Numbered from the stretch's first letter, positions 24,001-50,140 are shown. The stretch: DNA of 64,000 bases from Bdellovibrionales bacterium (GCA_965199935.1 CBDATD010000001.1:800531-864530), one strand, 5' to 3'. Program-made: numbers and translations. Notes: generated by a model not told the origin, from the sequence alone.

Positions 24001-24377
24001 TGGTTAGTGTGGAGGAATTGTGGTATAAAAAATAGTCTTTTGAGACTATTTTTTATAAGAAACAATGAAGAGGGCTGGGGGATGAGTTATTTGGAATATA
24101 AGAGTTTCTTCAATAATTTAAACTGGCGTTCAAATTATTTCAGGGCGAAAAAATGATTAAGAATGTTATTGCTGTCGAGCCGGTGGTTGGTGTGAGAGAA
24201 TTGTGGTATAAAAAATAGTCTTTTGAGACTATTTTTTATAAGAAACAATGAAGAGGGCTGGGGGATGAGTTATTTAGAATATAAGAGTTTCTTCAATAAT
24301 TTAAACTGGCGTTCAAATTATTTCAGGGCGAAAAAATGATTAAGAATGTTATTGTTGTCGAGCCAGTGGTTGGTGTG
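24001..24377. repeat. Tandem duplication, 183-bp unit x2, each with an AT-rich hairpin
   Basis: TGGTT(A/G)GTGTG at 24001, 24184, 24367; hairpin ATAAAAAATAGTCT...AGACTATTTTTTAT. Confidence 0.9.
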
Positions 24378-24420
24378 TAGGAAGAATGTTAAGAAAAGTT
24401 GACTTGGGATAGGCGAAAAT

Positions 24421-26995: not shown

Positions 26996-28012
26996 CTACA
27001 TATTTTTAAGCTTAAAATCCACCCGATGCCTATACCAGCCGGACTGACCAGGCTGATAACGCTGACGCGCCATAATTCTAAGAGCTTCATTGTCCAATAT
27101 AGAATACCCCGAAGACTTCAACAATTTAATTTTATCCACGAAACCCGTATCATCCACAAAATATTGCAAAAATACAGAACCCTCATTTTTGTTTTCCTTA
27201 GCCCGCTGTGGATACACCCAAGAAGGGTTTCCGGGCGCCGGAGCCAATAACCGGCTATTTTTGATTTCTGCTGGATCCTCCTCCTTAATAATATTCTTGA
27301 GAGCCTGGGGATCTGTATTAATCTCTTCAAAGTCTCTGCTCTCTGTCCATTCCGCCTCCTCAACAGTTATGAATTCAGACACATCTTCTTCTTGAGTTGT
27401 GGGAATTTCAGAGTTTCCAAGAGGAGAGTCGGCCCTTTCTTGTTCAACGGCGGTTAAATTCTCTGCAGGATTGTATTGAACTTCTGGGATTTGATGGATT
27501 TCTGATGAATCCACCGGGTTCTTTTGAACAGTTTTTTCAGTATTTGAATTTTCAGTGTCTTTTTCTCTAGGTAATTTTTTTTCAGCTGTTGGTTCAGCCG
27601 CCGGTGCTGTCTTTTGAACAGTTTTTTCAGTATTTGAATTTTCAGTGTCTTTTTCTCTAGGTAATTTTTTTTCAGCTGTTGGTTCAGCCGCCGGCGCTGT
27701 CTTTTGAACAGTTTTTTCCGATTGAACAACAGAGATTTTCTTTTTCAGCTGTTGGCCGACAGTCTTCTTTAATTTTTTCTTCTTTCTTGCAACAGCTTTT
27801 TGAAGAGGCTCTTTTTGGATAGATTCTTCCTCAAGAGATTTTTCTTGTTTTTCTATTACAGGCTCTTCTATTACAGGTTCGATAGGCTGGTCTGCGTTAA
27901 AGCGGTTCAGTAAATTCTGAGTCCATTCGGAAACAGAAGCGCCAGACCCGCTGATTAAGACAGCCCCGATTCCAATGTGAATCAATAAAGACAAAAAAAT
28001 ATATTTTTTCAT
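26996..28012 (-). CDS. TonB-family energy transducer with internal tandem repeat
   Basis: N-terminal TM SLLIH; C-terminal YPQRAKENKNEGSV...KSSGYSILDNEAL. Confidence 0.88.
   Translation of the reverse strand: MKKYIFLSLLIHIGIGAVLISGSGASVSEWTQNLLNRFNADQPIEPVIEEPVIEKQEKSLEEESIQKEPLQKAVARKKKKLKKTVGQQLKKKISVVQSEKTVQKTAPAAEPTAEKKLPREKDTENSNTEKTVQKTAPAAEPTAEKKLPREKDTENSNTEKTVQKNPVDSSEIHQIPEVQYNPAENLTAVEQERADSPLGNSEIPTTQEEDVSEFITVEEAEWTESRDFEEINTDPQALKNIIKEEDPAEIKNSRLLAPAPGNPSWVYPQRAKENKNEGSVFLQYFVDDTGFVDKIKLLKSSGYSILDNEALRIMARQRYQPGQSGWYRHRVDFKLKNM
27521..27718. repeat. In-frame 90-bp (30-aa) tandem repeat x2.2
   Basis: CTTTTGAACAGTTTTTTC at 27521, 27611, 27701. Confidence 0.92.
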
Positions 28013-30109: not shown

Positions 30110-30922
30110 ATGACTTTATTGCAAAAATATTCGTGGAGAGTGAAAGCGGGCGCAGTTTTAGTGTTTCTTTTGTTTATTTTGTCTCTGCTTTCTTGGCTGT
30201 CGCCGGTGTCCGAAATCAATTTGTCCCGCAGTTATGAGTTTCCGAGTTTGGAGCATCCCTTTGGCTTGGATGAAAATGGGAGGGATGTTTTTTGGCAGAT
30301 TTTACAAGGCTCCCGCGTGAGTTTTCTAGTGGCTTTGAGTGTGGTGTTGATAGGTTTGGCTGTGGGTTTGGCGGTAGGCTCCTTATCCGGTTATTTTAAA
30401 ACCTTGGACCCCGTGTTGATGCGTATTGTGGATATGTTTTATGCTTTTCCCAATTTTTTGCTGGCTATGGCTTTAATGGCTGTTTTGGGTTCTTCCGTTT
30501 TTAATTTAATTTTAGTCATGAGTTTGAGCACTTGGGCTGTTTATGCCAGATTGGTGAGGGGGGAGGTTTTACATTTGAAGGAAAAGGAATTTGTACTAAG
30601 CGCCGGTTCTTTAGGAGCCGGCTTCATTCGTAAAATGACCGGACATATTTGGCCCAATCTGATTCCTGTTTTAACAGTGCAGACTACTTTGACTTTGGCG
30701 GGTGTAATTCTCTCTGAATCGGGTCTTAGTTTTTTAGGCATTGGCATTCCTCCGGAGGTTCCGACCTGGGGGTCGCTGATGAGAGCGGGCCGTTTGGCTC
30801 TCATAGAGGCTCCTCATTTAAGTTTTTTCCCCGGCTTGTTTTTATTTTTATTAATTTTGGGTTTTCATTTATTGGGAGAGGGGCTGAGAGAGGCCTTGTC
30901 CCCTCATGAGAGGAAGGGATGA
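30110..30922 (+). CDS. Peptide ABC transporter permease (DppC/OppC-like)
   Basis: HPFGLDENGRDV, ARLVRGE, ESGLSFLGIG.PPEVPTWG. Confidence 0.9.
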   Translation: MTLLQKYSWRVKAGAVLVFLLFILSLLSWLSPVSEINLSRSYEFPSLEHPFGLDENGRDVFWQILQGSRVSFLVALSVVLIGLAVGLAVGSLSGYFKTLDPVLMRIVDMFYAFPNFLLAMALMAVLGSSVFNLILVMSLSTWAVYARLVRGEVLHLKEKEFVLSAGSLGAGFIRKMTGHIWPNLIPVLTVQTTLTLAGVILSESGLSFLGIGIPPEVPTWGSLMRAGRLALIEAPHLSFFPGLFLFLLILGFHLLGEGLREALSPHERKG

Positions 30923-31893
30923 TTAAGTTTTTGTACATACTTTTTATTCTTTGTGTTTTATGCGCCTGGGCTTTTTTTGTTCCCTCTTACGGTTCTAAGG
31001 AGTTTGTTCAACGTTTTGAGATTGCAAAGGGAGACTCAACGAGGAAAATTATTCAAAATTTAAAACAAAGTCAGTTTATTTACTCTTATTTTCCGTATAT
31101 TTTGTTCTTAAGGCCGGTTCAATTTAAGGCAGGTGAGTATTCTTTGTCTTCCACATACAACTCTTATGAAATTTTTCGGATTTTATCTTCCGGGAAAGTC
31201 ATCTCTTACGATATTACCTTTCCAGAGGGATTTAATATGTTTGAGATGGTTGATCTGTTAAGCCAAAATAATTTAGTTTCTAGAGAAGAGTTTTTAAAAT
31301 GGAGCCGTGACCCTGATTTTATTTTGTCTTTGCTGGGGGAGAAACTAAGGAGTTTAGAGGGTTATCTTTATCCGGACACTTATAAAATCACAAAAGGCAT
31401 GCCGGCTCAACAGCTGATAAAACTAATGGTTGGCGAGTTTTTGAAAAACTATCAAAGTATTTCTTCTTCTTTTGATGCCGGTTTAACCCGTCATCAGTTG
31501 GTGATTTTAGCTAGTTTGGTGGAGAAGGAGACGGGTGCCGGCTGGGAGAGGCCCCGGATTGCTTCTGTGTTTTACAATCGTTTGAAAAAAGGCATGAGGC
31601 TTCAAAGCGATCCGACGATTTTATACGGGATGATGATGGAGCTGGGTTATATGCCTCAAAATATTCGAAAGAAAGATATCTTGAAAAAAACGGATTACAA
31701 TACATACACTGTGAAGGCTTTCCCCAAAGGGCCTATCGCCAACCCGGGCCGTTCTGCTTTAGAGGCGGTGTTGAATCCTGAGAAGACATCTTTTTATTAT
31801 TTTGTGAGCAAGAACGACGGCACTCACGTTTTTTCTGAAGATCTTAAGTCGCATGAAAAAGCAGTAGATCTCTATCAACGAAAAAAGAAGTAA
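30919..31893 (+). CDS. mltG: Endolytic transglycosylase
   Basis: LEGYLYPDTY, ASLVEKE, NRLKKGMRLQSDPT, YNTY, GPIANPG. Confidence 0.94.
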   Translation: MIKFLYILFILCVLCAWAFFVPSYGSKEFVQRFEIAKGDSTRKIIQNLKQSQFIYSYFPYILFLRPVQFKAGEYSLSSTYNSYEIFRILSSGKVISYDITFPEGFNMFEMVDLLSQNNLVSREEFLKWSRDPDFILSLLGEKLRSLEGYLYPDTYKITKGMPAQQLIKLMVGEFLKNYQSISSSFDAGLTRHQLVILASLVEKETGAGWERPRIASVFYNRLKKGMRLQSDPTILYGMMMELGYMPQNIRKKDILKKTDYNTYTVKAFPKGPIANPGRSALEAVLNPEKTSFYYFVSKNDGTHVFSEDLKSHEKAVDLYQRKKK

Positions 31894-31921
31894 CTTCGGC
31901 ATTCCTGCGGCAGTAGAGGGC

Positions 31922-32104
31922 TGTGAATATACTTGCGTGTACGAGAGCAAAGGGAGACAGAGATTCAAAGCTCAAACATGCGTTTTGCTACAGAGCAAAC
32001 TTTGTCTGCTCTGTTTCAAATCCGAACTTGTTTTCAGCCCCGTCCCCCCATCCTTTCTACGTTCTGCATCTCAAATCCGAACTCGTTTGAACCTCCGCCT
32101 GCCC
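31922..32104 (+). repeat. ~150-bp palindromic repeat family, one copy plus a 3' fragment
   Basis: Core AAAGCTCAAACATGCGTTTTGC..CAGAGCAAACTTTGTCTGCTCTGTTTCAAATCCGAACT. Confidence 0.9.
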
Positions 32105-32152
32105 GGTTTCTCTAAACCTCTCACATATACAACTGATTATTCGCACCCTCAT

Positions 32153-33313
32153 TCAAGCACTCAAAACTTTTTTAAGAGCTGTTTTCCAATGGTAGTAATG
32201 TATTCCATTAGTTTTTCTATTTTTTGGATCATTAGACCACAGTTGAGCTGTACAGGGAAGATTCCAAACAGCTGTCATTTTTCTTAATGTCTTTCCATGC
32301 TCTTGATTGACAATATCAGAGGATTTAATTTCCACCAATATCTCCTCTCCAGAAGGTTTTTGAATAATCAGATCTATCTCCTGTCCATTGCTGTCCCTTA
32401 AGTATGAAAACTTTAAATTTTTTTCATAATAGGAATTGAGCCTCATCAGCTCTAAAATAATAAATTGCTCAAAAGCCCGGCCGTATTCGTAATTTCCCTT
32501 CTCCAAAGGCATTTTTGTTTTGTTGAGTAAGGCCCGCGTGACTCCTGTATCAAAAAGAAAAAATTTTGGAGCTTGATTTTGTTGTTTTCTAACGGAGCGA
32601 TGAAAACTTTTTAAGTAAAACCCTAAATAAGTATCTGTCAAAATGTCAAAATAACTTTGTACTGTTGTATAATCTACTCTTAGTTCTCTTGCAATTTTTG
32701 AATAATTGATAATTTGGCCGCTGCATTGAGCTGATATTTCCAAAAAATCTTTAAAAGGTTTAACCTTCCTAATCAATTGTTCTACAAGCACTTCTTCTTT
32801 TAAATAGGTTTGTATGTAGGACTCTAAGTATCTGGATTTTTCCTTCATGCTCTTATATTGGATAAGCATTGGAAGGGAGCCTGCTTCCAAAACAGACTTT
32901 AGATTGAAAAAGTTTTCCCATTCAAGATGAGTTAAAGGATGAAGTTTAAAAGTGAAAAGGCGGCCGGCCAGCATATTGGCCATGCCTTTTTTTAATTTTC
33001 GAGCGCTGGAGCCTGTGAGTATGAATTGTATGTTTTTGTTTTTTTCAATCTCCAGATGAACAATATCCAAAAGTTTTGGAATTTTTTGAATCTCATCTAT
33101 AATAACTCTTTTGTAAGGAGTTTCTTCTATGAGTTGTGTGAGTAAGTCCGGATCTTGTCTAAAACGGCTCTCTTCTCTGAAAGACAATAAATTGATCCAT
33201 AGGTTTTGTTTCTTTGAAAAAGTCCGCTCCAACAGGGTGGTTTTTCCCGTTCCCCTGGCGCCAAAGAGAAAAAAACTATGTTTTCTATCTAGTTTTTGAA
33301 GTCTTTTTATCAT
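32153..33313 (-). CDS. AAA_14 ATPase with DUF4143 domain (paralog of 25391-26563)
   Basis: GARGTGKT, IDEIQKIP, LTGSSARK, KFFLFDTG, EIDL...LVEIK. Confidence 0.9.
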   Translation of the reverse strand: MIKRLQKLDRKHSFFLFGARGTGKTTLLERTFSKKQNLWINLLSFREESRFRQDPDLLTQLIEETPYKRVIIDEIQKIPKLLDIVHLEIEKNKNIQFILTGSSARKLKKGMANMLAGRLFTFKLHPLTHLEWENFFNLKSVLEAGSLPMLIQYKSMKEKSRYLESYIQTYLKEEVLVEQLIRKVKPFKDFLEISAQCSGQIINYSKIARELRVDYTTVQSYFDILTDTYLGFYLKSFHRSVRKQQNQAPKFFLFDTGVTRALLNKTKMPLEKGNYEYGRAFEQFIILELMRLNSYYEKNLKFSYLRDSNGQEIDLIIQKPSGEEILVEIKSSDIVNQEHGKTLRKMTAVWNLPCTAQLWSNDPKNRKTNGIHYYHWKTALKKVLSA

Positions 33314-33324
33314 AAATCTTTATA

Positions 33325-33384
33325 GAGTATAGATAAATTAAGGGTATAGTCAAGGAAATATCGGATAAATAAAGGATATAGTCA
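33325..33384 (-). promoter_or_regulatory. Putative sigma70 promoter with a tandem 21-bp motif
   Basis: Minus strand TTGACT-16 nt-TATACT; GATAAAT.AAGG.TATAGTCA twice at 32-bp spacing. Confidence 0.5.
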
Positions 33385-33414
33385 TGAAAATATTCGTGAA
33401 ATAGTTAAAAGACT

Positions 33415-34212
33415 TTGTTTGAACCTCTGCCTGCCTTTGTTCTTCGTGTGGCAACCTGGGTTTGTGAATATACTTGCGTGTACGAAAGCAAAGGCAGACA
33501 GAGATTCAAAGCTCAGACAGGCGTTTTGCCGCAGAGCAAACTTTGTCTGCTCTGTTTCAAATCCGAACTCGTTTGAATCTCCGCCTGCCTTTGCTCTTCG
33601 TGCGGCAGCATGGGTTTGTGAATATACTCGCGTGTACGAAAGCAAAGGCAGACGAATCTTCAAAGCTCAAACATGCGTTTTGCCACAGAGCAAACTTTGT
33701 CTGCTCTGTTTCAAAGCCGAACTCGTTTGAATCTCCGCCTGCCTTTGCTCTTCGTGCGGCAGCATGGGTTTGTGAATATACTTGCGTGTACGAAAGCAAA
33801 GGCAGACAGAGATTCAAAGCTCAGACAGGCGTTTTGCCGCAGAGCAAACTTTGTCTGCTCTGTTTCAAATCCGAACTCGTTTGAATCTCCGCCTGCCTTT
33901 GCTCTTCGTGCGGCAGCATGGGTTTGTGAATATACTCGCGTGTACGAAAGCAAAGGCAGACGAATCTTCAAAGCTCAAACATGCGTTTTGCCACAGAGCA
34001 AACTTTGTCTGCTCTGTTTCAAAGCCGAACTCGTTTGAATCTCCGCCTGCCTTTGCTCTTCGTGCGGCAGCATGGGTTTGTGAATATACTCGCGTGTACG
34101 AAAGCAAAGGCAGACGAATCTTCAAAGCTCAAACATGCGTTTTGCCACAGAGCAAACTTTGTCCGCTCTGTTTCAAAGCCGAACTCGTTTGAATCTCCGC
34201 CTGCCTTTGCTT
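33415..34212 (+). repeat. Tandem array of 154-bp palindromic units (x5.2; variant order A-B-A-B-B)
   Basis: TGGGTTTGTGAATATA at 33457, 33611, 33765, 33919, 34073. Confidence 0.96.
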
Positions 34213-34242
34213 TTCCTGCAAAAGCAATTCTTATGCCTCAAA

Positions 34243-34358
34243 ATATGATCAAAAATAAGATTTTTTGAGCGGATGATTGATGATATGATCAAAAATAAGC
34301 TTTTTTGAGCAGATGATTGATGATATGTTCAAAAACAGGCTTTTTTGAGCAGATGATT
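34243..34358 (+). repeat. 40-bp tandem repeat x3 with internal inverted repeat, just upstream of fic
   Basis: ATATG(A/T)TCAAAAA.....TTTTTTGAGC.GATGATT at 40-bp period. Confidence 0.9.
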
Positions 34359-35411
34359 ATGACCCATTTAGAGTATCCTACCTTGCAAAGTTTAGAAACT
34401 CCTCAGATTTTAAAGGAGTTGATTCCCGCTCACAAACATTTAGCTGAACTTAAAGGAATTATTCACAGCATTCCAAATGAAAAAATCCTGCTCAGCAATT
34501 TAACACTTCAAGAAGCCAAAGACAGCTCTGCTATTGAAAACATTATTACAACCCAGGACAGCTTGTATAAACACAATGCTATTCCTGATTTAAAAAATAA
34601 ACCCAATAAAGAAATCTATCATTATAGGGAAGCTTTAGAGTTTGGATACAAAAAAGTAAAATCAGATCAAGGAATTTCACTCAATACTATTTTAAGTATT
34701 CAAAAGATTATTGAACCCGATAAACCTGGTTTTCGCCGGGTTCCTGGAACAGTTATAAAAAATATATCCGAAAACAAAATTGTCTATACTCCTCCTTCTC
34801 CAGATCAGCTTCCCAAGTTTATGAACAAGTTAGAAAAATTTATAAATACAAACTCCCCAATGGATCCTATTGTAAAAATGGCTGTCATACACCATCAGTT
34901 TGAAAGCATACATCCATTTTATGACGGCAATGGAAGAACAGGGCGTATTTTAAATATTCTTTATTTGGTTCTAATGAATCTCTTAAACAGTCCTGTGCTG
35001 TTTCTCAGCCGGTACATTCAAAATAATAAATCCGATTATTATCGTTTACTTCAAAAAGTCAGAACAAAAAATGTTTGGAAAGAGTGGATCATCTATATCT
35101 TAAAGAGTGTTTCTAATACTGCGCAAAATACCACTGATTTGACTAAAAAAATTGACCGGCTGTTCAAAGAATACAAACATGTAATCCGCTCTAATCACAG
35201 ATTTTATTCTCAAGACTTAATCAACAGTATTTTTTCTCACCCTTATACTAAAGTCAAATTTTTACAGCAAGATATGAACATATCTCGAGCCACCGCCGGC
35301 CGCTACTTAGATGCTTTATGCGAAAACGATATACTTGAAAAACATAAACAAGGCAAAGATATCTATTATGTCAATACAAAACTTTTTGAACTGCTCAAAA
35401 ATTCTTCTTGA
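34359..35411 (+). CDS. Fic-family adenylyltransferase with C-terminal HTH-like region
   Basis: Canonical HPFYDGNGRTGR; N-terminal inhibitory-type SSAIEN; ISRATAGRYLDAL. Confidence 0.93.
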   Translation: MTHLEYPTLQSLETPQILKELIPAHKHLAELKGIIHSIPNEKILLSNLTLQEAKDSSAIENIITTQDSLYKHNAIPDLKNKPNKEIYHYREALEFGYKKVKSDQGISLNTILSIQKIIEPDKPGFRRVPGTVIKNISENKIVYTPPSPDQLPKFMNKLEKFINTNSPMDPIVKMAVIHHQFESIHPFYDGNGRTGRILNILYLVLMNLLNSPVLFLSRYIQNNKSDYYRLLQKVRTKNVWKEWIIYILKSVSNTAQNTTDLTKKIDRLFKEYKHVIRSNHRFYSQDLINSIFSHPYTKVKFLQQDMNISRATAGRYLDALCENDILEKHKQGKDIYYVNTKLFELLKNSS

Positions 35412-35484
35412 GCAGTAGATCCAGGTTGTCATATTTCCAAGTGCGAAACTCGGCAGTTTCTCTTGGCAGTTCCATCATCTTGCT

Positions 35485-35745
35485 TGTACGAAGAGCAAAG
35501 GCAGACGAATTTTCAAAGCTCAAACATGCGTTTTACTACAGAGCAAACTTTGTCTGCTCTGTTTCAAAGCCGAACTCGTTTGAACCTCCGCCTGCCTTTG
35601 CTTCTCCTAAGTCCGCTGTCTTTGCAGTCAGCTAGGCAGACAGAGATTCAAAGCTTAAATATGCGTTTTGTCGCAGAGCAAACTTTGTCTGCTCTGTTTC
35701 AAATCCGAACTCGTTTGAATCTCCGCCTGCCTTTGCTCTTCGTGC
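35485..35745 (+). repeat. Palindromic repeat family, two copies with alternative linker
   Basis: Cores at ~35515 and ~35650; linker TCTCCTAAGTCCGCTGTCTTTGCAGTCAGCTA also at ~39452. Confidence 0.92.
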
Positions 35746-36029
35746 AAAAGCAATTCTTATGCCTCAAAATATGATCAAAAATGATAGTGTCTGACCATTT
35801 TTGATTCGTCTGCCTTTTTTTGACAACCTTTTAACTCGGTTATTTTCGAGACCGGATTGAGCTGAGAAAAAATCTTAACTCTTTGAAAAAACTTAGAAAA
35901 TAGACAAGCACCGCCCTATAAAACAAGCTCAAAACCTCTTTATCTCAAGAGTTGGACATAAATTTGCACGTCTTTTTTATGAAATTTGAATGTGGGTCAA
36001 GTTTCAAGTAACCTATAGGGGAGGAAATT

Positions 36030-36758
36030 ATGTCTATGCAGAAAGAAAAATCGTCTCAACAAGAGATTGCTGAGATTTGGAAGCTGTTTCGGGAAACCCG
36101 CAAACAGATCCAGCTTATGTCTGACGAAACAAACCGCCAGATGAAAGACACTGATGAGCGAATGAAAGAAACCGATGAACGAATGAAAGACACTGATGAA
36201 CGAATGAAAGAAACTGATGAACGAATGAAAGACGCTGGTGAGCGGCTGAAAGAAACAGAACGAATTTTAAAAGAGGGGGCAAAAGAAACAAGAGAGCAGA
36301 TGAAAGAAACCGACCGCCGGCTGCGAAAGCTCGATTATTTATTCACCGGTCATTGGGGAAAACTCATGGAAGCTCTAACAGCAGGGGGGTTGAAGACCGC
36401 TTTGCAGGAAAGAGATATTCAAGTCACAGGAGTTTGCTCTAACGCAGAAAGAATCTACAAGGATGAAAGAAGAGAGTTTGATGTTATAGCGACCAACGGA
36501 GAAGAGCTTGTTGTGGTGGAAGTCAAAACCACTTTAAAACTAGAGCAAGTGCAGTATTTTTTAGAAAGTATTCGGGATTTTAAAAATTATTTCCCTGAGT
36601 ATAGAGATAAAAAAGTTTACGGGGCTATGGCTTATTTGAAGTCCAATGAAGGGGCCTCTCAGTATGCTGAGAAAAAGGGTTTGTTTATTTTAAATCCTGT
36701 GGGGAATATCATCAAAGTTGTCAACTCTGTCCATTTTCGCCCTGTTCAAATAGATTAG
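36030..36758 (+). CDS. Coiled-coil heptad-repeat protein with C-terminal PD-(D/E)XK nuclease-like domain (DUF3782-like), copy 1
   Basis: (D/E)TDERMK repeats; WGKLMEAL; EFDVIA...VVVEVK; GGGGAGG RBS. Confidence 0.8.
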   Translation: MSMQKEKSSQQEIAEIWKLFRETRKQIQLMSDETNRQMKDTDERMKETDERMKDTDERMKETDERMKDAGERLKETERILKEGAKETREQMKETDRRLRKLDYLFTGHWGKLMEALTAGGLKTALQERDIQVTGVCSNAERIYKDERREFDVIATNGEELVVVEVKTTLKLEQVQYFLESIRDFKNYFPEYRDKKVYGAMAYLKSNEGASQYAEKKGLFILNPVGNIIKVVNSVHFRPVQID

Positions 36759-36782
36759 ATGCTCCCAAAGCTTTATCATCAT

Positions 36783-36990
36783 CCTGGGTTTGTGAATATA
36801 CTCGCGTGTACGAAAGCAAAGGCAGACAGAGATTCAAAGCTCAAACATGCGTTTTGCCACAGAGCAAACTTTGTCTGCTCTGTTTCAAAGCCGAACTCGT
36901 TTGAACCTCCGCCTGCCTTTGCTCTTCGTGCGGCAGCCTGGGTTTGTGAATATACTTGCTTTTCCTGCAACAGCATGGGTTTGCTGAATA
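36783..36990 (+). repeat. Palindromic repeat family, one full copy plus linker fragments
   Basis: Matches array unit; GGGTTTG(C)TGAATAT repeated. Confidence 0.92.
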
Positions 36991-37235
36991 TTTGCAGGTG
37001 TTTGGCACAGCCGCTTGAAACGCTGGATCAGGCAATGTATGGGAGCAGTATTTTATTATGTTGTTTTAGAAGAGGCGGATTTTTCTGGGTTTTTATAAAG
37101 AGGAGAAAAAGTCTGTTGTATTTTGAGACACTTTTTTGTTCTGAGCTTTAAGTTTTGTTTAAGGGAGCTTGTTTTTCCTTAAGTTTGCAGGGGCCGTGTC
37201 CGATTGTTGTTTTAAGAATAATAGTGGAGGTTCTT

Positions 37236-37424
37236 ATGAAAAAACGTATTAAAAAACATATTACGGATCTGCTCAAAGATGAGTCCGGGCAAGGCACCAC
37301 CGAGTATATCCTCATCCTCGTTGGAGTTGTCGCTTTGGGTTTTTTGTTCAAAGACAAAATAGTGAGTGTCGTTAGTGGAAAAATGGACAGTTTGGGAACA
37401 GACATCAGTTCTTTTACACCATAG
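37236..37424 (+). CDS. flp: Flp type IVb pilin
   Basis: KDESG-QGTTEYILIL Flp motif; GGAGG RBS. Confidence 0.9.
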   Translation: MKKRIKKHITDLLKDESGQGTTEYILILVGVVALGFLFKDKIVSVVSGKMDSLGTDISSFTP

Positions 37425-37467
37425 GTGAAAAATGATTATAACACAGTATTGTTATTGAAAAAATAAA

Positions 37468-37701
37468 ATGATTACAGAATATGTTCTTTTAATGGTGCTT
37501 TCTGTGGCAATGGTGGCGACTGTTCTTACTGGCGGTACCCCCCTCCTGTCCGGCCAGCCGGCCGGAGGCATCCACGGCATCTTCACTGAAGGTATTCCCC
37601 AATTAGCTATTCGTATGGAAAAACATTTGATGACCGGCTATCCTTTTTGCGTTCAGTATCCTCAAGGAGGATCGAGACAGGGTTGTTCTTGGCAAGACTA
37701 G
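37468..37701 (+). CDS. Flp/TadE-like minor pilin with no visible prepilin leader
   Basis: MITEYVLLM hydrophobic helix, C-terminal Cys pair; in-frame stop four codons upstream. Confidence 0.65.
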   Translation: MITEYVLLMVLSVAMVATVLTGGTPLLSGQPAGGIHGIFTEGIPQLAIRMEKHLMTGYPFCVQYPQGGSRQGCSWQD

Positions 37702-37777
37702 ATATTTCACCTCTATACATAATGCCGCCACCTATGGGACCACCGCCGATTTGACAGTATTATCATTCATCATTATT

Positions 37778-38145
37778 CGTCTGCTCTGCCTCAAATCCGA
37801 ACTCGTTTGAACCTCTGCCCGCCTTTGCTCTTCATGTTGCAGCATGGGTTTGTGAATATACTCGCGTGTACGAAAGCAAAGGCAGACGAATTTTCAAAGC
37901 TCAAACATACGTTTTGCCACAGAGCAAACTTTGTCTGCTCTGTTTCAAATTCAAACTCGTTTGAATCTCCGCCTGCCTTTGCTCTTCGTGCGGCAGCATG
38001 GGTTCGTGAATATACTCGTGTGTACGAAAGCAAAGGCAGACGAATCTTCAAAGCTCAGACATGCGTTTTGCCGCAGAGCAAACTTTGTCTGCTCTGTTTC
38101 AAATCCGAACTCGTTTGAATCTCCGCCTGCCTTTGCTCTTCGTGC
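37778..38145 (+). repeat. Palindromic repeat family, ~2.4 tandem copies
   Basis: Matches array unit at 154-bp period. Confidence 0.93.
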
Positions 38146-38429
38146 AAAAGCAATTCTTATGCCTCAAAATATGATCAAAAATGATAGTGTCTGACCATTT
38201 TTGATTCGTCTGCCTTTTTTTGACAACCTTTTAACTCGGTTATTTTCGAGACCGGATTGAGCTGAGAAAAAATCTTAACTCTTTGAAAAAACTTAGAAAA
38301 TAGACAAGCACCGCCCTATAAAACAAGCTCAAAACCTCTTTATCTCAAGAGTTGGACATAAATTTGCACGTCTTTTTTATGAAATTTGAATGTGGGTCAA
38401 GTTTCAAGTAACCTATAGGGGAGGAAATT

Positions 38430-39137
38430 ATGTCTATGCAGAAAGAAAAATCATCTCAACAAGAGATTGCTGAGATTTGGAAGCTGTTTCGGGAAACCCG
38501 CAAACAGATCCAGCTTATGTCTGACGAAACAAACCGCCAGATGAAAGACACTGATGAGCGAATGAAAGAAACCGATGAACGAATGAAAGACACTGATGAG
38601 CGAATGAAAGACGCTGGTGAGCGGCTGAAAGAAACAGAACGAATTTTAAAAGAGGGGGCAAAAGAAACAAGAGAGCAGATGAAAGAAACCGACCGCCGGC
38701 TGCGAAAGCTCGATTATTTATTCACCGGTCATTGGGGAAAACTCATGGAAGCTCTAACAGCAGGGGGTTTGAAGACCGCTTTGCAGGAAAGAGATATTCA
38801 AGTCACAGGAGTTTGCTCTAACGCAGAAAGAATCTACAAGGATGAAAGAAGAGAGTTTGATGTTATAGCGACCAACGGAGAAGAGCTTGTTGTGGTGGAA
38901 GTCAAAACCACTTTAAAACTAGAGCAAGTGCAGTATTTTTTAGAAAGTATTCGGGATTTTAAAAATTATTTCCCTGAGTATAGAGATAAAAAAGTTTACG
39001 GGGCTATGGCTTATTTGAAGTCCAATGAAGGGGCCTCTCAGTATGCTGAGAAAAAGGGTTTGTTTATTTTAAATCCTGTGGGGAATATCATCAAAGTTGT
39101 CAACTCTGTCCATTTTCGCCCTGTTCAAATAGATTAG
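38430..39137 (+). CDS. Coiled-coil PD-(D/E)XK nuclease-like protein, copy 2 (one heptad shorter)
   Basis: Near-identical to 36030-36758; 235 versus 242 aa. Confidence 0.8.
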   Translation: MSMQKEKSSQQEIAEIWKLFRETRKQIQLMSDETNRQMKDTDERMKETDERMKDTDERMKDAGERLKETERILKEGAKETREQMKETDRRLRKLDYLFTGHWGKLMEALTAGGLKTALQERDIQVTGVCSNAERIYKDERREFDVIATNGEELVVVEVKTTLKLEQVQYFLESIRDFKNYFPEYRDKKVYGAMAYLKSNEGASQYAEKKGLFILNPVGNIIKVVNSVHFRPVQID

Positions 39138-39158
39138 ATGCTCCCAAAGCTTTATCAT

Positions 39159-39612
39159 CCTGGGTTTGTGAATATACTTGCGTGTACGAAAGCAAAGGCA
39201 GACGAATCTTCAAAGCTCAGACATGCGTTTTGCCGCAGAGCAAACTTTGTCTGCTCTGCCTCAAATCCGAACTCGTTTGAATCTCCGCCTGCTTTGCTTT
39301 TCGTGCGGCAGCCTGGGTTTGTGAATATACTTGCGTGTACGAAAGCAAAGGCAGACGAATCTTCAAAGCTCAGACATGCGTTTTGCCGCAGAGCAAACTT
39401 TGTCTGCTCTGCCTCAAATCCGAACTCGTTTGAATCTCCGCCTGCTTTGCTTCTCCTAAGTCCGCTGTCTTTGCAGTCAGCTAGGCAGACGAATCTTCAA
39501 AGCTCAAACATGCGTTTTGCCACAGAGCAAACTTCGTCTGCTCTGCCTCAAATCCGAACTTGTTTGAACCTCCGCCTGCCTTTGCTTTTCCTGCAACAGC
39601 AGGGCTGTGTGA
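39159..39612 (+). repeat. Palindromic repeat family, three tandem copies
   Basis: Three cores; last joined by the alternative linker. Confidence 0.93.
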
Positions 39613-39685
39613 ACAAGTCTGCAAACTGCAGATATACTTTAGATCAAGTCTTTTCAGACTTGAATATCGTTGCTATATTTAATTT

Positions 39686-40192
39686 ATGACGGGTGAATCT
39701 TTTCTTGTTCTAGTCTCTGGTTTGATACTGGTGCTGGCTTTAGCGGCGGATCTGAAAACTAGAAAGATTCATAATAAACTGTTGTTATGCCTCATTCCTG
39801 TAGCTTTAACCGCCGTTGTTCTCACTCAAGGATGGACAGCTCTTTTCAGAACCAGCCTTCTCTCCGGCCTGGGTGCTTTAGCGTTTTCTATGCCTCTTTA
39901 CTTTTTTAGAATCATTGGAGGGGGCGATTTAAAACTTTACGTGACCGTCGCCCTTACTTGGAATTTATCCACTGTTTTCTGGTCTTTGGCATTGGCTCTC
40001 CCTTGGGGTGGATTTTTAGGTCTCATCCGCTCCTGTCTTCAGGGCCGAGCTTATATTATCTGGACGAATATGCTGAGTTTGATCAAATTTAAAAAAGTAG
40101 AGAAAACAGCCCTTCAGACTTTTCCCTTTTCTGTCGTTTTATTATTAGGGTGGCTGAGTTATCGGGTTTTGAATAAAATAGGCAGTCTGTGA
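39686..40192 (+). CDS. cpaA: Prepilin peptidase A24 (CpaA/TadV-like)
   Basis: ADLKTRKIHN, GGGDLKL aspartate motifs, multiple TMs. Confidence 0.88.
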   Translation: MTGESFLVLVSGLILVLALAADLKTRKIHNKLLLCLIPVALTAVVLTQGWTALFRTSLLSGLGALAFSMPLYFFRIIGGGDLKLYVTVALTWNLSTVFWSLALALPWGGFLGLIRSCLQGRAYIIWTNMLSLIKFKKVEKTALQTFPFSVVLLLGWLSYRVLNKIGSL

Positions 40193-41815: not shown

Positions 41816-41954
41816 AAGGATTGCTCATGCGTTTTGCTGTGGGCTTTCAAAGATGGAGGCTCAGCACAACGGCTGGCCCCCTGCTTCCGCAGGGGCGGTG
41901 CGTGTGTAAAGCGGAGTGATTGCAAAAACATACATGAAAAGTCTAGGGGGGGTA

Positions 41955-42039
41955 AAACTGCAAACAAGTTCGGCTTTGAGGCTGAGCGGGCCGACAGCTT
42001 GCTCTGCTACAAAAACGCATGCCTGCAGTTTGCAGGTTT
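41955..42039 (-). repeat. Diverged, inverted copy of the palindromic repeat core
   Basis: Reverse complement CTGCAAA...CATGCGTTTTTG..GCAGAGCAA...CCTCAAAGCCGAACTTGTTTGCAG. Confidence 0.8.
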
Positions 42040-42206
42040 GTTCACACCAGATGAACTGCTCCTACAAGAGGGGTGTTTTGACAGCGGTCTTGGAAAAGAC
42101 ACCCCTTATACAAGGGCTTTGAATCCGTAAAAGAAATTAATGAAAACGTCCTAAAATTCCGAAAAATCATAGAGGGAAAAGCACAATTTTCAAGGGGGTT
42201 TTCAGG

Positions 42207-49548: not shown

Positions 49549-49581
49549 ACACCGCCCCTGAGTACGTGATAACGTCTTTTC

Positions 49582-49950
49582 CATAAAAACGGGGCAGATA
49601 GATCTGTAAAGCTCAAACATGCGTTTTGCCACAGAGCAAACTTTGTCTGCTCTGTTTCAAAGCCGAACTCGTTTACAGCTCTACCTGCCCTGTTTTTCTA
49701 TGTACATATGCCGCTTCCACATTGACACTGTTTTCATAAAAGCAGGGCAGGTAGATCTGTAAAGCTCAAACATGCGTTTTGCCACAGAGCAAACTTTGTC
49801 TGCTCTGTTTCAAAGCCGAACTCGTTTACAGCTCTACCTGCCCCGTTTTTCTATGTACATATGCCGCTTCCACATTGACACTGTTTTCATAAAAGCAGGG
49901 CAGATAGATCTGTAAAGCTCAAACATGCGTTTTGCCACAGACAAATTTTG
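49582..49950 (+). repeat. Subfamily of the palindromic repeat, 153-bp period x2.4
   Basis: GCTCAAACAT at 49611, 49764, 49917; same core, different outer stem and linker. Confidence 0.93.
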
Positions 49951-50140
49951 TCCTTAGGTGTTTGAGTGATAGACAATTTTTCTCATTTTTGCCCTGTCAA
50001 ACACAGGCCCCCTGGAAGATGGCAATAACTCTAACTCATTGATTTTTCTAAATTATTTAACATTTTTCTCAAACGGTGTCTGCTTTGTCCCCTGATTTGC
50101 AGGTAATAAAGCAGGGGTTTTTTGCACAAGGAAGTGAAAT

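Follow-up and report, generated by a model that had tools for sequence, protein, structure and literature searches.

An integron-like gene array that is most likely not an integron: a dispersed hairpin repeat at an accessory-gene hotspot beside pilus genes

Is a row of single genes set between structured repeats an integron that lacks its integrase, or does it reflect a repeat that is dispersed over the whole chromosome? The question is raised by positions 31900-39690 of a 64,000-nucleotide stretch of DNA (the window) from a small Bdellovibrio-like bacterium, where such a row adjoins pilus (flp/tad) genes. An earlier note on this DNA had read it as an integron-like platform for the capture and shuffling of genes. 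The genome under study (G000; 1.44 Mb in 2 contigs, 94% complete), of which these ~7.8 kb make up 0.54%, was compared with a closed congener (G002), another congener (G001) and a distant closed genome from another family (G039). Repeats were called with direct-repeat and tandem-repeat finders, a whole-genome nhmmer search and a covariance model (CM). Genes were labelled with Pfam, and NCBIfam and PADLOC models were used for defence genes.

Layout of the locus and its counterparts in relatives

The repeat searches agreed on 14 repeats (1+5+2+1+2+3), in exactly the module order that the earlier note had described: one repeat, AAA-DUF4143, five repeats, fic, two repeats, a nuclease, one repeat, flp with a small ORF, two repeats, a second nuclease, three repeats and cpaA. 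The 14 are full copies (~138 nt) and all lie on the + strand, as had been noted for the layout as a whole; the AAA gene, however, runs the other way. The locus also contains four or more truncated copies. The features are listed below.

30919-31893, + strand: mltG of the YceG family, a conserved gene that bounds the hotspot on the left (Pfam YceG, 8.1e-80)
31931-32068, + strand: repeat copy 1 (nhmmer; CM 123.4 bits)
32070-32112, + strand: truncated repeat, right half alone, reference copy of direct-repeat family D3 (sequence)
32153-33313, - strand: AAA_14 + DUF4143 ATPase gene (Pfam; PADLOC PDC-S01, a candidate defence family, 2.1e-67)
32167-33393: AAA-DUF4143 module including its promoter region (extent of nucleotide homology to other genomes)
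33402-33455, + strand: truncated repeat, again a right half, adjoining the AAA module (D3 copy 33402-33444; weak CM match 33352-33455, E 0.081)
33472-34225, + strand: five tandem repeat units, period 154 (TRF 5.2 copies, 94% matches; CM 142-152 bits each)
34218-34256, + strand: 39-nt tail, copy 1 (BLAST 39/39)
34317-35411, + strand: fic gene, SoFic type (Pfam Fic_N, Fic, SoFic-like_C; PADLOC SoFic 7.1e-113)
35479-35751, + strand: two repeat units, period 135 (nhmmer; family D2; the CM gives the first unit only)
35744-35782, + strand: 39-nt tail, copy 2, continuing into a 286-nt nuclease leader (BLAST)
36030-36758, + strand: predicted coiled-coil PD-(D/E)XK nuclease gene, copy 1, 242 aa
36800-36937, + strand: repeat unit, 42 nt past the nuclease stop (nhmmer, CM), then a partial unit (36954-36987)
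37236-37424, + strand: flp pilin gene, backbone (Pfam Flp1_like 7.8e-9; kept in G002)
37468-37701, + strand: 77-aa ORF 3' of flp, backbone (76% nucleotide identity in G002)
37779-37843, + strand: truncated repeat beginning at the hairpin apex (sequence; D3 copy 37790-37832; CM 37702-37843, E 0.0075)
37860-38151, + strand: two tandem repeat units, period 154 (TRF, nhmmer, CM)
38144-38182, + strand: 39-nt tail, copy 3 (BLAST)
38430-39137, + strand: predicted nuclease gene, copy 2, 235 aa, shorter than copy 1 by a single 7-residue coiled-coil unit
39176-39600, + strand: three repeat units (TRF, nhmmer, CM), then a truncated left arm of another arm type to ~39640
39686-40192, + strand: cpaA prepilin peptidase, right anchor of the hotspot (Pfam Peptidase_A24 1e-8; kept in G002 and G001)
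41926-42067, - strand: divergent repeat copy outside the locus, in opposite orientation, before rcpC (CM 91.2 bits; nhmmer)
49572-50013, + strand: two full and one truncated repeat units with a different, co-varying outer stem (TRF, CM, fold)

The labels mltG, AAA-DUF4143, fic, nuclease, flp and cpaA given earlier were upheld; 'pilin' for the 77-aa ORF, which has no Pfam or NCBIfam match, was not. Two cargo genes match the PADLOC defence models SoFic and PDC-S01; against the NCBIfam SoFic model the Fic protein scores 346.8 bits, under that model's 550-bit cut-off. The 80 nt upstream of the AAA-DUF4143 gene are conserved along with it, and there is a promoter-like site at 33353-33326 (10/12 matches).

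Comparison of module content among relatives, which the earlier note had suggested, found the locus empty in one congener and differently filled in another. In G002, mltG (82% identical; 77% in G001) is followed by 433 bp, flp, the small ORF, 157 bp and cpaA, the four modules and the repeat all being absent; G001 has other cargo ahead of cpaA. Because the G002 backbone is free of modules and repeats, 31900-39690 is a strain-specific insertion hotspot; since G002 is nearly devoid of the repeat, joint and separate arrival of cargo and repeats cannot be read from it. The AAA-DUF4143 module occupies other loci in G002 and G001, and in G000 it ends exactly at repeat remnants. An 88%-identical protein is encoded at a different locus in G002, with nucleotide homology confined to 32167-33393. 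Conserved flanks, variable content and matches to defence models mark the locus as an accessory hotspot or defence-type island. It sits between mltG and the flp/tad operon and also between the operon's second small gene and cpaA, and holds four self-contained single-gene modules (AAA-DUF4143, Fic and two nucleases) within repeat arrays.

By sequence, both nuclease ORFs have only weak Hjc/AHJR matches (Pfam). The predicted structure (pLDDT 87.7) presents a PD-(D/E)XK fold behind a 117-residue helix, and the top Foldseek matches in the PDB are SfsA, AF1548, the nuclease domains of Can2/Card1 and NucS/EndoMS, with probabilities of 0.99-1.00 and TM-scores of just 0.2-0.4. Residues E149, D151, E164 and K166 are invariant across 47 homologues, and the translation shows an E-D-EVK signature. 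Judged by the modelled alpha-beta core fold and this motif, the two genes are members of the PD-(D/E)XK superfamily. They fall in the same family as the coiled-coil PD-(D/E)XK nucleases of PF26618, a precomputed annotation on the query and most of its matches; the family is multi-copy, and its stalk lengths differ stepwise. An inverted half-copy of the repeat adjoins a broken nuclease paralogue.

The two nuclease modules form a single 1.5-kb segmental duplication (35479-36959 versus 37861-39334). This repeat-to-repeat event copied the nuclease module into the pilus operon, in agreement with the spread into the pilus locus proposed earlier. The 39-nt tail said to join the repeat to fic and to both nuclease modules is exact at 34218, 35744 and 38144. 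It is absent elsewhere in the 1.44-Mb genome (BLAST), and is a mark of local duplication, not a general cassette end. The end bases of tail copy 1 open a 40-nt tandem repeat of three units (34243-34362) in the fic leader (TRF), and the last ~70 nt of the nuclease leader are ~84% conserved upstream of paralogues on contig 2.

Structure and spread of the repeat

The repeat unit is ~125-138 nt long and is arranged head-to-tail with a period of 135-154. Each unit folds much better than its shuffled versions (z -4.0 to -7.1, with 0/200 shuffles as good), so the hairpin is not due to chance. The core sequence is conserved and contains two conserved bulges, CTCAGACATGCG and GCCGAACTCG, and the surrounding stems vary by compensatory changes. 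In the alignment, 86.2% of cells are paired, compared with 34-48% when partners are slid; 23 of 35 stem pairs have changes on both sides, and none of 500 shuffles reached the observed covariation. Homologues in other genera (36-61% GC) keep both bulge motifs while their stems are fully re-coded, and other families of the same order also carry the repeat with compensatory stem changes. A conserved core between variable outer arms is the reverse of a typical MITE, whose terminal inverted repeats are the conserved part. In the 64-kb window, Rfam 15 gave no match at the gathering score, and a permissive scan returned hairpin look-alikes only, none scoring above 29.1 bits where the thresholds are 45-184.

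Across G000, nhmmer found 66 core copies in 38 clusters, a fifth of which (14 copies) are at the locus. Matches were present in 15 of 61 genomes among relatives, G000 included; four genomes of the genus have 66, 37, 1 and 0 copies, and in a phylum sample of 150 genomes the sole matches were in four genomes of the same order. G039 has 38 copies amid ordinary metabolic genes. When the short clusters of G000 were compared with G002, four of seven were insertions of the repeat alone, separating genes that lie next to each other in G002. The other three are positioned where G002 synteny ends, which indicates that repeats and variable DNA are associated beyond this locus. In G001, 1.3 units lie inside an ABC-transporter operon, between two ABC-permease genes whose G000 counterparts are separated by 20 bp. 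Arrays of two, three and five units contain no ORF. These observations show that the element spreads alone and amplifies in tandem.

Junctions between repeat and unique DNA are heterogeneous: some lie in the linker, others in either bulge (5' or 3'), at the apex or at the end of an arm. Apparent flanking direct repeats of 20-60 nt at insertions are partial extra repeat units, and filled and empty sites are too diverged for a target duplication to be read. Recombination between copies has left its marks: besides the nuclease duplication there is an inverted half-copy, and arm combinations among the copies are chimeric, as in copy 1, whose left and right arms are of different types.

The earlier note had held that fixed gene order with repeats inserted independently of cargo would refute its proposal, and this is largely what the four repeat-only sites and the G001 operon display. 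A strain-specific insertion zone survives from that proposal; a dedicated capture platform is unsupported, because the repeat is genome- and order-wide, inserts alone, has varied junctions and forms gene-free arrays of up to five units. The repeat does not serve this locus as a site of cassette recombination; it is one of a family of non-coding hairpins that is dispersed through the genome and occurs across the order.

Searches for mobility machinery agree with the earlier statement that intI and attC consensus ends are lacking. In attC sites the hairpin base carries two core motifs, R'' (RYYYAAC) and R' (GTTRRRY). Neither occurs in any of the 28 copy-strands obtained by reading each of the 14 copies, plus 10 nt on either side, in both directions, and no integron integrase was found in G000, where the best TIGR02249 score was 111.6 against a 265-bit cut-off. 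Four tyrosine recombinases are encoded in this genome, all distant from the locus, with TIGR02249 scores of 111.6, 91, 33.2 and none; the two best-scoring look XerC/XerD-like. The genome yielded no transposase of the Y1, rve or IS110 type, and no TnpB-type match exceeded the cut-off, the sole PF07282 match being below it and inside a 1267-aa ORF. PF01797 (Y1/RAYT) was not found in G000, G001, G019 or G039; control genomes matched.

Orientation of the repeat with replication

The unexpected result of the analysis was that the orientation of the repeat is linked to replication. The same face lies on the G-rich strand in 63 of 66 G000 copies (62 when a copy in the terminus bin is excluded), and 35 of 38 clusters obey the replication-direction rule, compared with 58.8% of genes. 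Three of the rule-following clusters are flanked on either side by a lagging-strand gene, and in all three the element is oriented with replication. Among the G039 copies listed, 24 of 29 obey the same rule, four of them lying antisense among seven + strand genes; in G019, four copies follow it, two go against it and one is ambiguous. It is replication direction, and not transcription, that the orientation of the repeat follows. The better hairpin is formed by the complement of the strand on the template for the lagging strand in 61 of 63 G000 copies, and the same comparison in other genomes gave 17/20 (RNA parameters) and 20/20 (DNA parameters). A simple model of folding on the lagging-strand template fails to predict the pattern.

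Possible explanations and comparison with known systems

On balance, the locus probably reflects a REP/BIME-like structured repeat whose copies give homology for duplicating and shuffling accessory genes in a hotspot. The repeat would propagate through an enzyme-driven, single-stranded DNA stage at the replication fork; it is orientation alone that points to this step, since no factor that we found explains the movement of the repeat. Many copies in the same orientation would amount to dispersed homology, and ordinary recombination or replication slippage between them could duplicate, delete or relocate the intervening DNA. Such events would account for the repeat-gene-repeat layout, for the 1.5-kb duplication that placed a nuclease module among the pilus genes, for arms of mixed type and for a 39-nt tail seen at this locus alone. 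Points that count against this explanation are the strand on which the better hairpin forms, the concentration of a fifth of all copies at one locus, the association of three short clusters with the ends of G002 synteny and the mixed orientations in G019.

Alternatively, the locus could be an integrase-free cassette system in which the hairpin, folded from single-stranded DNA, is an attC analogue cut and joined by an enzyme such as the PD-(D/E)XK nuclease, gene-plus-hairpin units being captured and reshuffled site-specifically. We regard this as unlikely. As in attC, structure is conserved while stems vary, the cargo consists of single genes of defence type that each have a promoter region, and a sister genome has the locus without cargo; yet junctions differ, up to five units stand in tandem without a gene, solo copies lie between housekeeping genes, the AAA module is inverted and the tail is private to the locus. 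The better-folding strand is on the leading-strand template, as attC bottom strands are reported to be in 25 of 30 sedentary chromosomal integrons (PMC5371416). The hairpin lies 42-67 nt downstream, on the same strand, of 4 of 10 nuclease paralogues, which are not independent of one another, compared with 4.3% of all genes within 150 nt. This could indicate a more specific link, but none of seven nuclease loci in G001, G002 and G019 has the repeat, so that within this comparison the adjacency is confined to G000. In G039, no nuclease homologue was found with this query, despite its 38 repeat copies.

It is quite unlikely that the hairpin acts as RNA, either as a REP-like 3'-UTR stabiliser or processing site or as a small-RNA family, with arrays co-transcribed with their neighbours. 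Covariation is strong, unpaired motifs are conserved and convergent gene pairs are commoner at the clusters (12 of 38) than among all intergenic spaces (15%). Although a co-oriented gene precedes 27 of the 38 clusters, often with its stop codon 7-60 nt away, this is no different from the 58.8% expected (p 0.14), and orientation tracks replication, not the adjacent genes. Moreover, the four G039 copies noted above are antisense to every surrounding gene, as is the solo G001 copy within its operon, so opposite strands would enter mRNA from different copies; no terminator-like site coincides with a repeat, and an Rfam family match is absent. Very unlikely, finally, is a polar chromosome signal kept by the host, like Chi or FtsK-orienting sequences (in recombination, segregation or fork handling), with cargo merely in permissive DNA: two distant genomes share the orientation rule and both unpaired motifs persist across families, but copies are clustered rather than evenly spread, their number falls from 66 to 0 within one genus, and the element was not found in most sampled genomes of the order, a pattern more in keeping with a selfish element than with a host function.

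To return to the REP/BIME-like explanation, the locus resembles an integron and is most likely not one. Sedentary chromosomal integrons likewise have single-gene modules split by same-orientation imperfect palindromes of ~60-140 nt, a structure better conserved than stem sequence, defence-type cargo and an orientation fixed relative to replication. Unlike them, the locus has no IntI, no R''/R' core motifs and no single crossover point; it has gene-free tandem units, one inverted gene and a repeat dispersed chromosome-wide, and its modules carry their own promoter regions, whereas integron cassettes are mostly promoterless, run in one orientation and share a common promoter. The IS200/IS605 elements, such as IS608, and their palindrome-associated miniature derivatives depend on hairpins, are handled as single strands and are oriented with the replication fork. 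The repeat shares this last property (63 of 66 copies in G000, 24 of the 29 listed in G039). In contrast to IS200/IS605, where subterminal hairpins flank a gene, the conserved part here is the inner core, and neither a Y1 transposase nor an above-cut-off TnpB accompanies it. Family-specific orientation bias of insertion sequences has been surveyed (PMC3971601). Like defence islands, the locus has conserved flanks (mltG and the tad operon), content that differs in three congeners and SoFic and PDC-S01 matches; unlike them, it has no integrase, tRNA or mobile-element backbone, and an endogenous repeat family separates the modules.

REP/BIME elements of proteobacteria are abundant intergenic structured palindromes, often placed directly behind stop codons, that occur solo or in mosaic tandem arrays with linker motifs and serve as substrates for rearrangement; in REP/BIME-RAYT systems the palindromes are short (20-40 nt) and typically alternate in orientation. 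The present unit differs in being 3-5 times longer with a conserved branched core, in its head-to-tail copies and strong replication-linked orientation, and in that no RAYT gene was found in four genomes. Like REP, BIME and REPIN sequences, it is a structured intergenic palindrome, solo or tandem, that is linked to rearrangement, and the mechanism at this locus appears closer to REP/BIME-type repeat-mediated rearrangement within a small defence island.

Gene content of the mltG-cpaA interval and its empty counterpart

By repeat finders, by nhmmer and by a covariance model alike, 14 full copies of the hairpin repeat (R) are placed at window positions 31900-39690, all on the + strand, and at least four truncated copies lie among them. 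From gene to gene the copies form the series 1, 5, 2, 1, 2, 3, in agreement with the earlier note. The genome under study (G000; contigs C1 and C2) is a 1.44-Mb assembly in two contigs, 94% complete, and the window corresponds to C1:800531-864530. For one G000 protein, the homologues that bear an organism name belong to 'Bdellovibrionales bacterium'. The genes of the interval are the following.

Left anchor: YceG/MltG
Minus strand: AAA_14-DUF4143 ATPase (PADLOC candidate defence family PDC-S01, 2e-67)
Fic protein (PADLOC SoFic, 7e-113)
Duplicated 235-242-aa protein, two copies
flp and a 77-aa ORF, the latter without a family match
Right anchor: cpaA, A24 prepilin peptidase

The two modules that carry the duplicated protein, a predicted nuclease, are a single repeat-to-repeat duplication (35479-36959 and 37861-39334) and differ by one 21-nt coiled-coil unit. 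A 39-nt tail had been described as joining R to fic and to both nuclease modules; it is exact at all three positions (34218, 35744 and 38144), has no further site in the whole G000 genome, and is confined to the nuclease-module duplication and the fic junction.

The closed congener G002, with ~80% nucleotide identity in the flanks, presents the site empty: its order is mltG, 433 bp, flp, a small ORF, 157 bp and cpaA, and the ATPase, Fic, nuclease and R are all absent from this locus. The G000 locus therefore holds two insertions, one of ~5.3 kb past mltG and one of ~2.0 kb within the pilus operon. In a second congener, G001, the assembly breaks past mltG and ahead of cpaA, and the DNA ahead of cpaA codes for a different protein tail, which may resemble an Rpn/YhgA-type C-terminus. 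The ATPase protein occurs at other loci in both congeners, 88% identical in G002 and 67% in G001. Nucleotide homology of its module is limited to 32167-33393, which takes in the ORF and the 80 nt upstream of it, and ends exactly at the start of R remnants in G000. Relatives of Fic in the genomes searched are only 35-38% identical.

Several short tandem arrays accompany these genes. At 34243-34362 there are three 40-nt units, every one of which contains a short A/T-rich inverted repeat; the array lies directly upstream of, and overlaps, the fic start codon (TTG start 34317) and looks like an operator or leader structure. Two 32-nt units at 33332-33403 occupy the AAA-DUF4143 promoter region and, at the other loci of this gene in G002 and G001, are conserved with it. 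Two tandem repeats unrelated to R are found at 24001-24383 (period 183, 2.1 copies, 95% matches) and at 27520-27718 (period 90, 2.2 copies, 99% matches).

Structure, spread and orientation of the repeat

R has a conserved secondary structure. The unit is an imperfect hairpin of ~125-138 nt with a conserved core inside an outer stem, the core being made up of one bulge on the 5' side (CTCAGACATGCG), an inner stem-loop and, on the 3' side, a second bulge (GCCGAACTCG). It folds much more stably than shuffled sequences (z -4.0 to -7.1), and at least four sequence types can be told apart among the outer stems in G000, with complementarity kept in each. When 63 copies were aligned, three degenerate copies being excluded, 86.2% of cells were paired, against 34-48% with slid partners; both-sided changes occurred in 23 of 35 pairs, and none of 500 shuffles matched the observed covariation. 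Chimeric copies, with the left arm of one type and the right arm of another, are footprints of recombination within the conserved core. No family for R was returned by Rfam scans at gathering or permissive thresholds, and a terminator scan placed no site on any R. CRISPR-like arrays were dropped, spacers being absent, as were type III toxin-antitoxin RNA arrays, since the R units are too long, are dispersed and also occur away from nuclease genes.

R is spread genome-wide and through the order. In G000, core copies number 66 and form 38 clusters. With a covariance model built from G000 copies, there were 37 matches in G001, one in G002 and none in a third congener (G003); outside the genus, there were 7 in G019 (another genus of the same family), 38 in G039 (a closed genome from a different family within the order) and a few in nine further genomes. 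By this model 15 of 61 genomes, G000 counted, are R-positive. When 150 genomes sampled from the phylum were scanned under stricter filters (E <= 1e-5), matches were confined to four genomes, all of the same order. The distant copies span 36-61% GC and keep both bulge motifs, with stems entirely re-coded. Because of this distribution, and of re-coded stems that retain their bulges, R is old, structurally constrained and patchy, as expected of a selfish mobile element and not of a host signal.

The orientation of R follows replication. From GC skew, the origin of G000 lies at ~C1:600 kb and the terminus at ~C2:350 kb, and the same face of R is on the G-rich strand in 63 of 66 copies (62 without the copy in the terminus bin). 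Counted by cluster, the rule holds in 35 of 38, whereas the share of genes co-oriented with replication is only 58.8%. The gene on the 5' side of R is co-oriented in 27 of the 38 clusters, no different from 58.8% (p 0.14). Both neighbouring genes are on the strand opposite R in four clusters; in three of these the neighbours are lagging-strand genes and R follows replication, and the fourth (window 41926-42067) follows neither replication nor genes. In G039, where sampled skew puts the terminus at ~0.2-0.3 Mb and the origin at ~1.2-1.35 Mb, the same rule applies to 24 of 29 copies among the matches listed, the five exceptions being confined to two places; amid seven + strand genes there are four antisense copies. 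Orientation is weaker in G019 (four copies follow, two run against and one is ambiguous). The two strands also differ in folding: the more stable hairpin is that of the complement of whichever strand belongs to the lagging-strand template in 61 of 63 G000 copies and, among 20 distant copies, in 17 with RNA parameters and in all 20 with DNA parameters. This asymmetry arises because A.C mismatches on one strand are G.T/G.U pairs on the other.

A complement of R is also found in the nuclease leaders. Just past the tail, at 35788-35817 and 38188-38217, a 30-nt stretch is the near-exact complement of the R left arm, with which it pairs better than R's own right arm does; it could pair with the R unit before it, either within a transcript or when the DNA is single-stranded.

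Insertion without cargo and the search for machinery

Insertion of R needs no cargo. Seven single or short R clusters of G000 were compared with G002. In four of them (C2:264.9k, C1:774.1k, C1:495.9k and C2:349.5k) R alone is inserted between genes that are direct neighbours in G002; in the other three the right-hand flank is non-syntenic there. G001 carries 1.3 R units, antisense, between two ABC-permease genes, a pair spaced by 20 bp in G000, and the neighbours of R in G039 are ordinary genes, including those for acyl-CoA dehydrogenase, methylmalonyl-CoA mutase, RlmN and PfkB. The earlier note had read the array as a platform for repeat-mediated capture and shuffling of genes. As a refutation it named a gene order constant among relatives, with repeats inserted irrespective of cargo, and this is largely what the comparisons show, yet R is enriched at the borders of variable DNA.

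Filled and empty sites are too diverged in intergenic DNA for their alignments to place insertion ends or a target-site duplication. Four public-read runs were available as Logan contigs, which are broken at R copies. The joints listed for them, with 20-54 nt on the shorter side, are within R sequence and attributable to any of the 66 copies; since the joints sit inside R, circular junctions and structural variants are unreadable from these contigs. In the window, junctions of R with unique DNA fall in the linker (past both nuclease genes), near the left arm (past fic), at the apex (past the small ORF), in the 3' bulge (beside the ATPase promoter), in the 5' bulge (ahead of cpaA) and at an arm end.

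A second, much shorter repeat is common to the intergenic DNA of G000, G001 and G002, often just 5' of R. It consists of a mini-hairpin, rich in GC and closed by a GAAA/GAAG-type loop, and then a GGA(A/G)TCC(A/G)GTC-like motif. Examples are the following.

G000, locus L034: 1440-1500 and 1640-1665
G002, locus L064: the mltG-flp spacer
G001, locus L066: 1-380
G001, locus L116: 1408-1501

Since empty sites in G001 and G002 also contain the mini-hairpin, it may be the older element or the landing site of R. A regular expression for it gave 6 matches, against 10 in a shuffled genome, the pattern being too narrow for a count.

No recognisable integron or transposase machinery was found. The statement that the array has neither intI nor attC consensus was upheld: the four tyrosine recombinases of G000 are encoded far from the locus, with scores well short of the integron-integrase cut-off, and attC core motifs occurred in 0 of 28 R copy-strands. 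There was no Y1 transposase in G000, G001, G019 or G039; in G000 there were no rve or IS110 transposases, and no match over cut-off for a TnpB-type zinc ribbon. The sole reverse transcriptase of G000 is that of a type IX retron, 50 kb from any R (G000:C1:949806-953396, locus L118; PADLOC RT_IX, 2e-120; adjoining HTH partner HTH_IX, 3e-30). The retron is a further defence system in this genome.

In the predicted structure of the duplicated protein (pLDDT 87.7), a single helix of 117 residues leads into a PD-(D/E)XK nuclease fold. The best PDB matches of the model are SfsA, AF1548, the Can2/Card1 nuclease domains and NucS/EndoMS; residues E149, D151, E164 and K166 do not vary among 47 homologues, and the precomputed family assignment is PF26618. 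A profile search against PDB sequences gave coiled-coil look-alikes only. G000 has ~10 paralogues, which have a conserved leader of ~70 nt in common and vary in stalk length. R lies 42-67 nt downstream, on the same strand, of 4 of 10 paralogues, against a background of 4.3% of crude gene calls with R within 150 nt (binomial 6e-4), the paralogues being non-independent because duplicates carried their flanks along. R was found at none of seven nuclease loci in G001, G002 and G019 (E < 0.01), and G039, with its many R copies, yielded no nuclease homologue with this query. A functional coupling of R and the nuclease is possible but unsupported. At G000:C2:426000-448947 at least seven paralogues are clustered, and most of the difference between them is in the length of the stalk. 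One paralogue carries an in-frame stop, with an inverted half-repeat coming after the gene, and a truncated R left arm is found directly past the stop codon in all paralogues of this cluster.

A hotspot, a self-spreading hairpin and known systems

In the best-supported account, an accessory (defence-type) gene hotspot would have been colonised by a self-propagating, replication-oriented hairpin repeat, and the many parallel copies would drive gene duplication and shuffling via ordinary recombination. We infer that recombination between R copies is the shuffling mechanism and that R passes through a single-stranded DNA step at the replication fork. RNA-like covariation, bulges conserved across genera at 36-61% GC, and an orientation set by replication together point to a protein-recognised single-stranded DNA form.

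A minority reading, which we consider unlikely, goes further. It takes R as the cis site of an undescribed, replication-coupled mobile system that acts on single-stranded DNA and is restricted to one Bdellovibrio-like order. An enzyme recognising the bulges, unrelated to known integrases and HUH transposases, would move the hairpin alone or with an adjacent gene and so provide an integrase-free cassette platform; the candidate would be the structure-specific coiled-coil PD-(D/E)XK nuclease, which is multi-copy in the genus.

A structured repeat that spreads by itself, combined with ordinary recombination, suffices for R-gene-R arrays, and genome scans should allow for integron-like layouts without an integron. 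The locus shows gain and duplication of defence genes, even within a pilus operon, in an uncultured predator or epibiont with a very small genome (1.44 Mb). R also offers a concrete system for studying the movement of non-autonomous hairpin elements where no transposase is found. Rfam and the literature searched hold no description of R, of a replication-oriented intergenic hairpin or of a Bdellovibrio repeat, the sole relevant paper found on the latter two being PMC3971601. R is therefore rated as previously undescribed, in a REP/BIME-like class, and the placement of its better-folding strand is the same as that reported in PMC5371416 for the attC bottom strands of most sedentary integrons.
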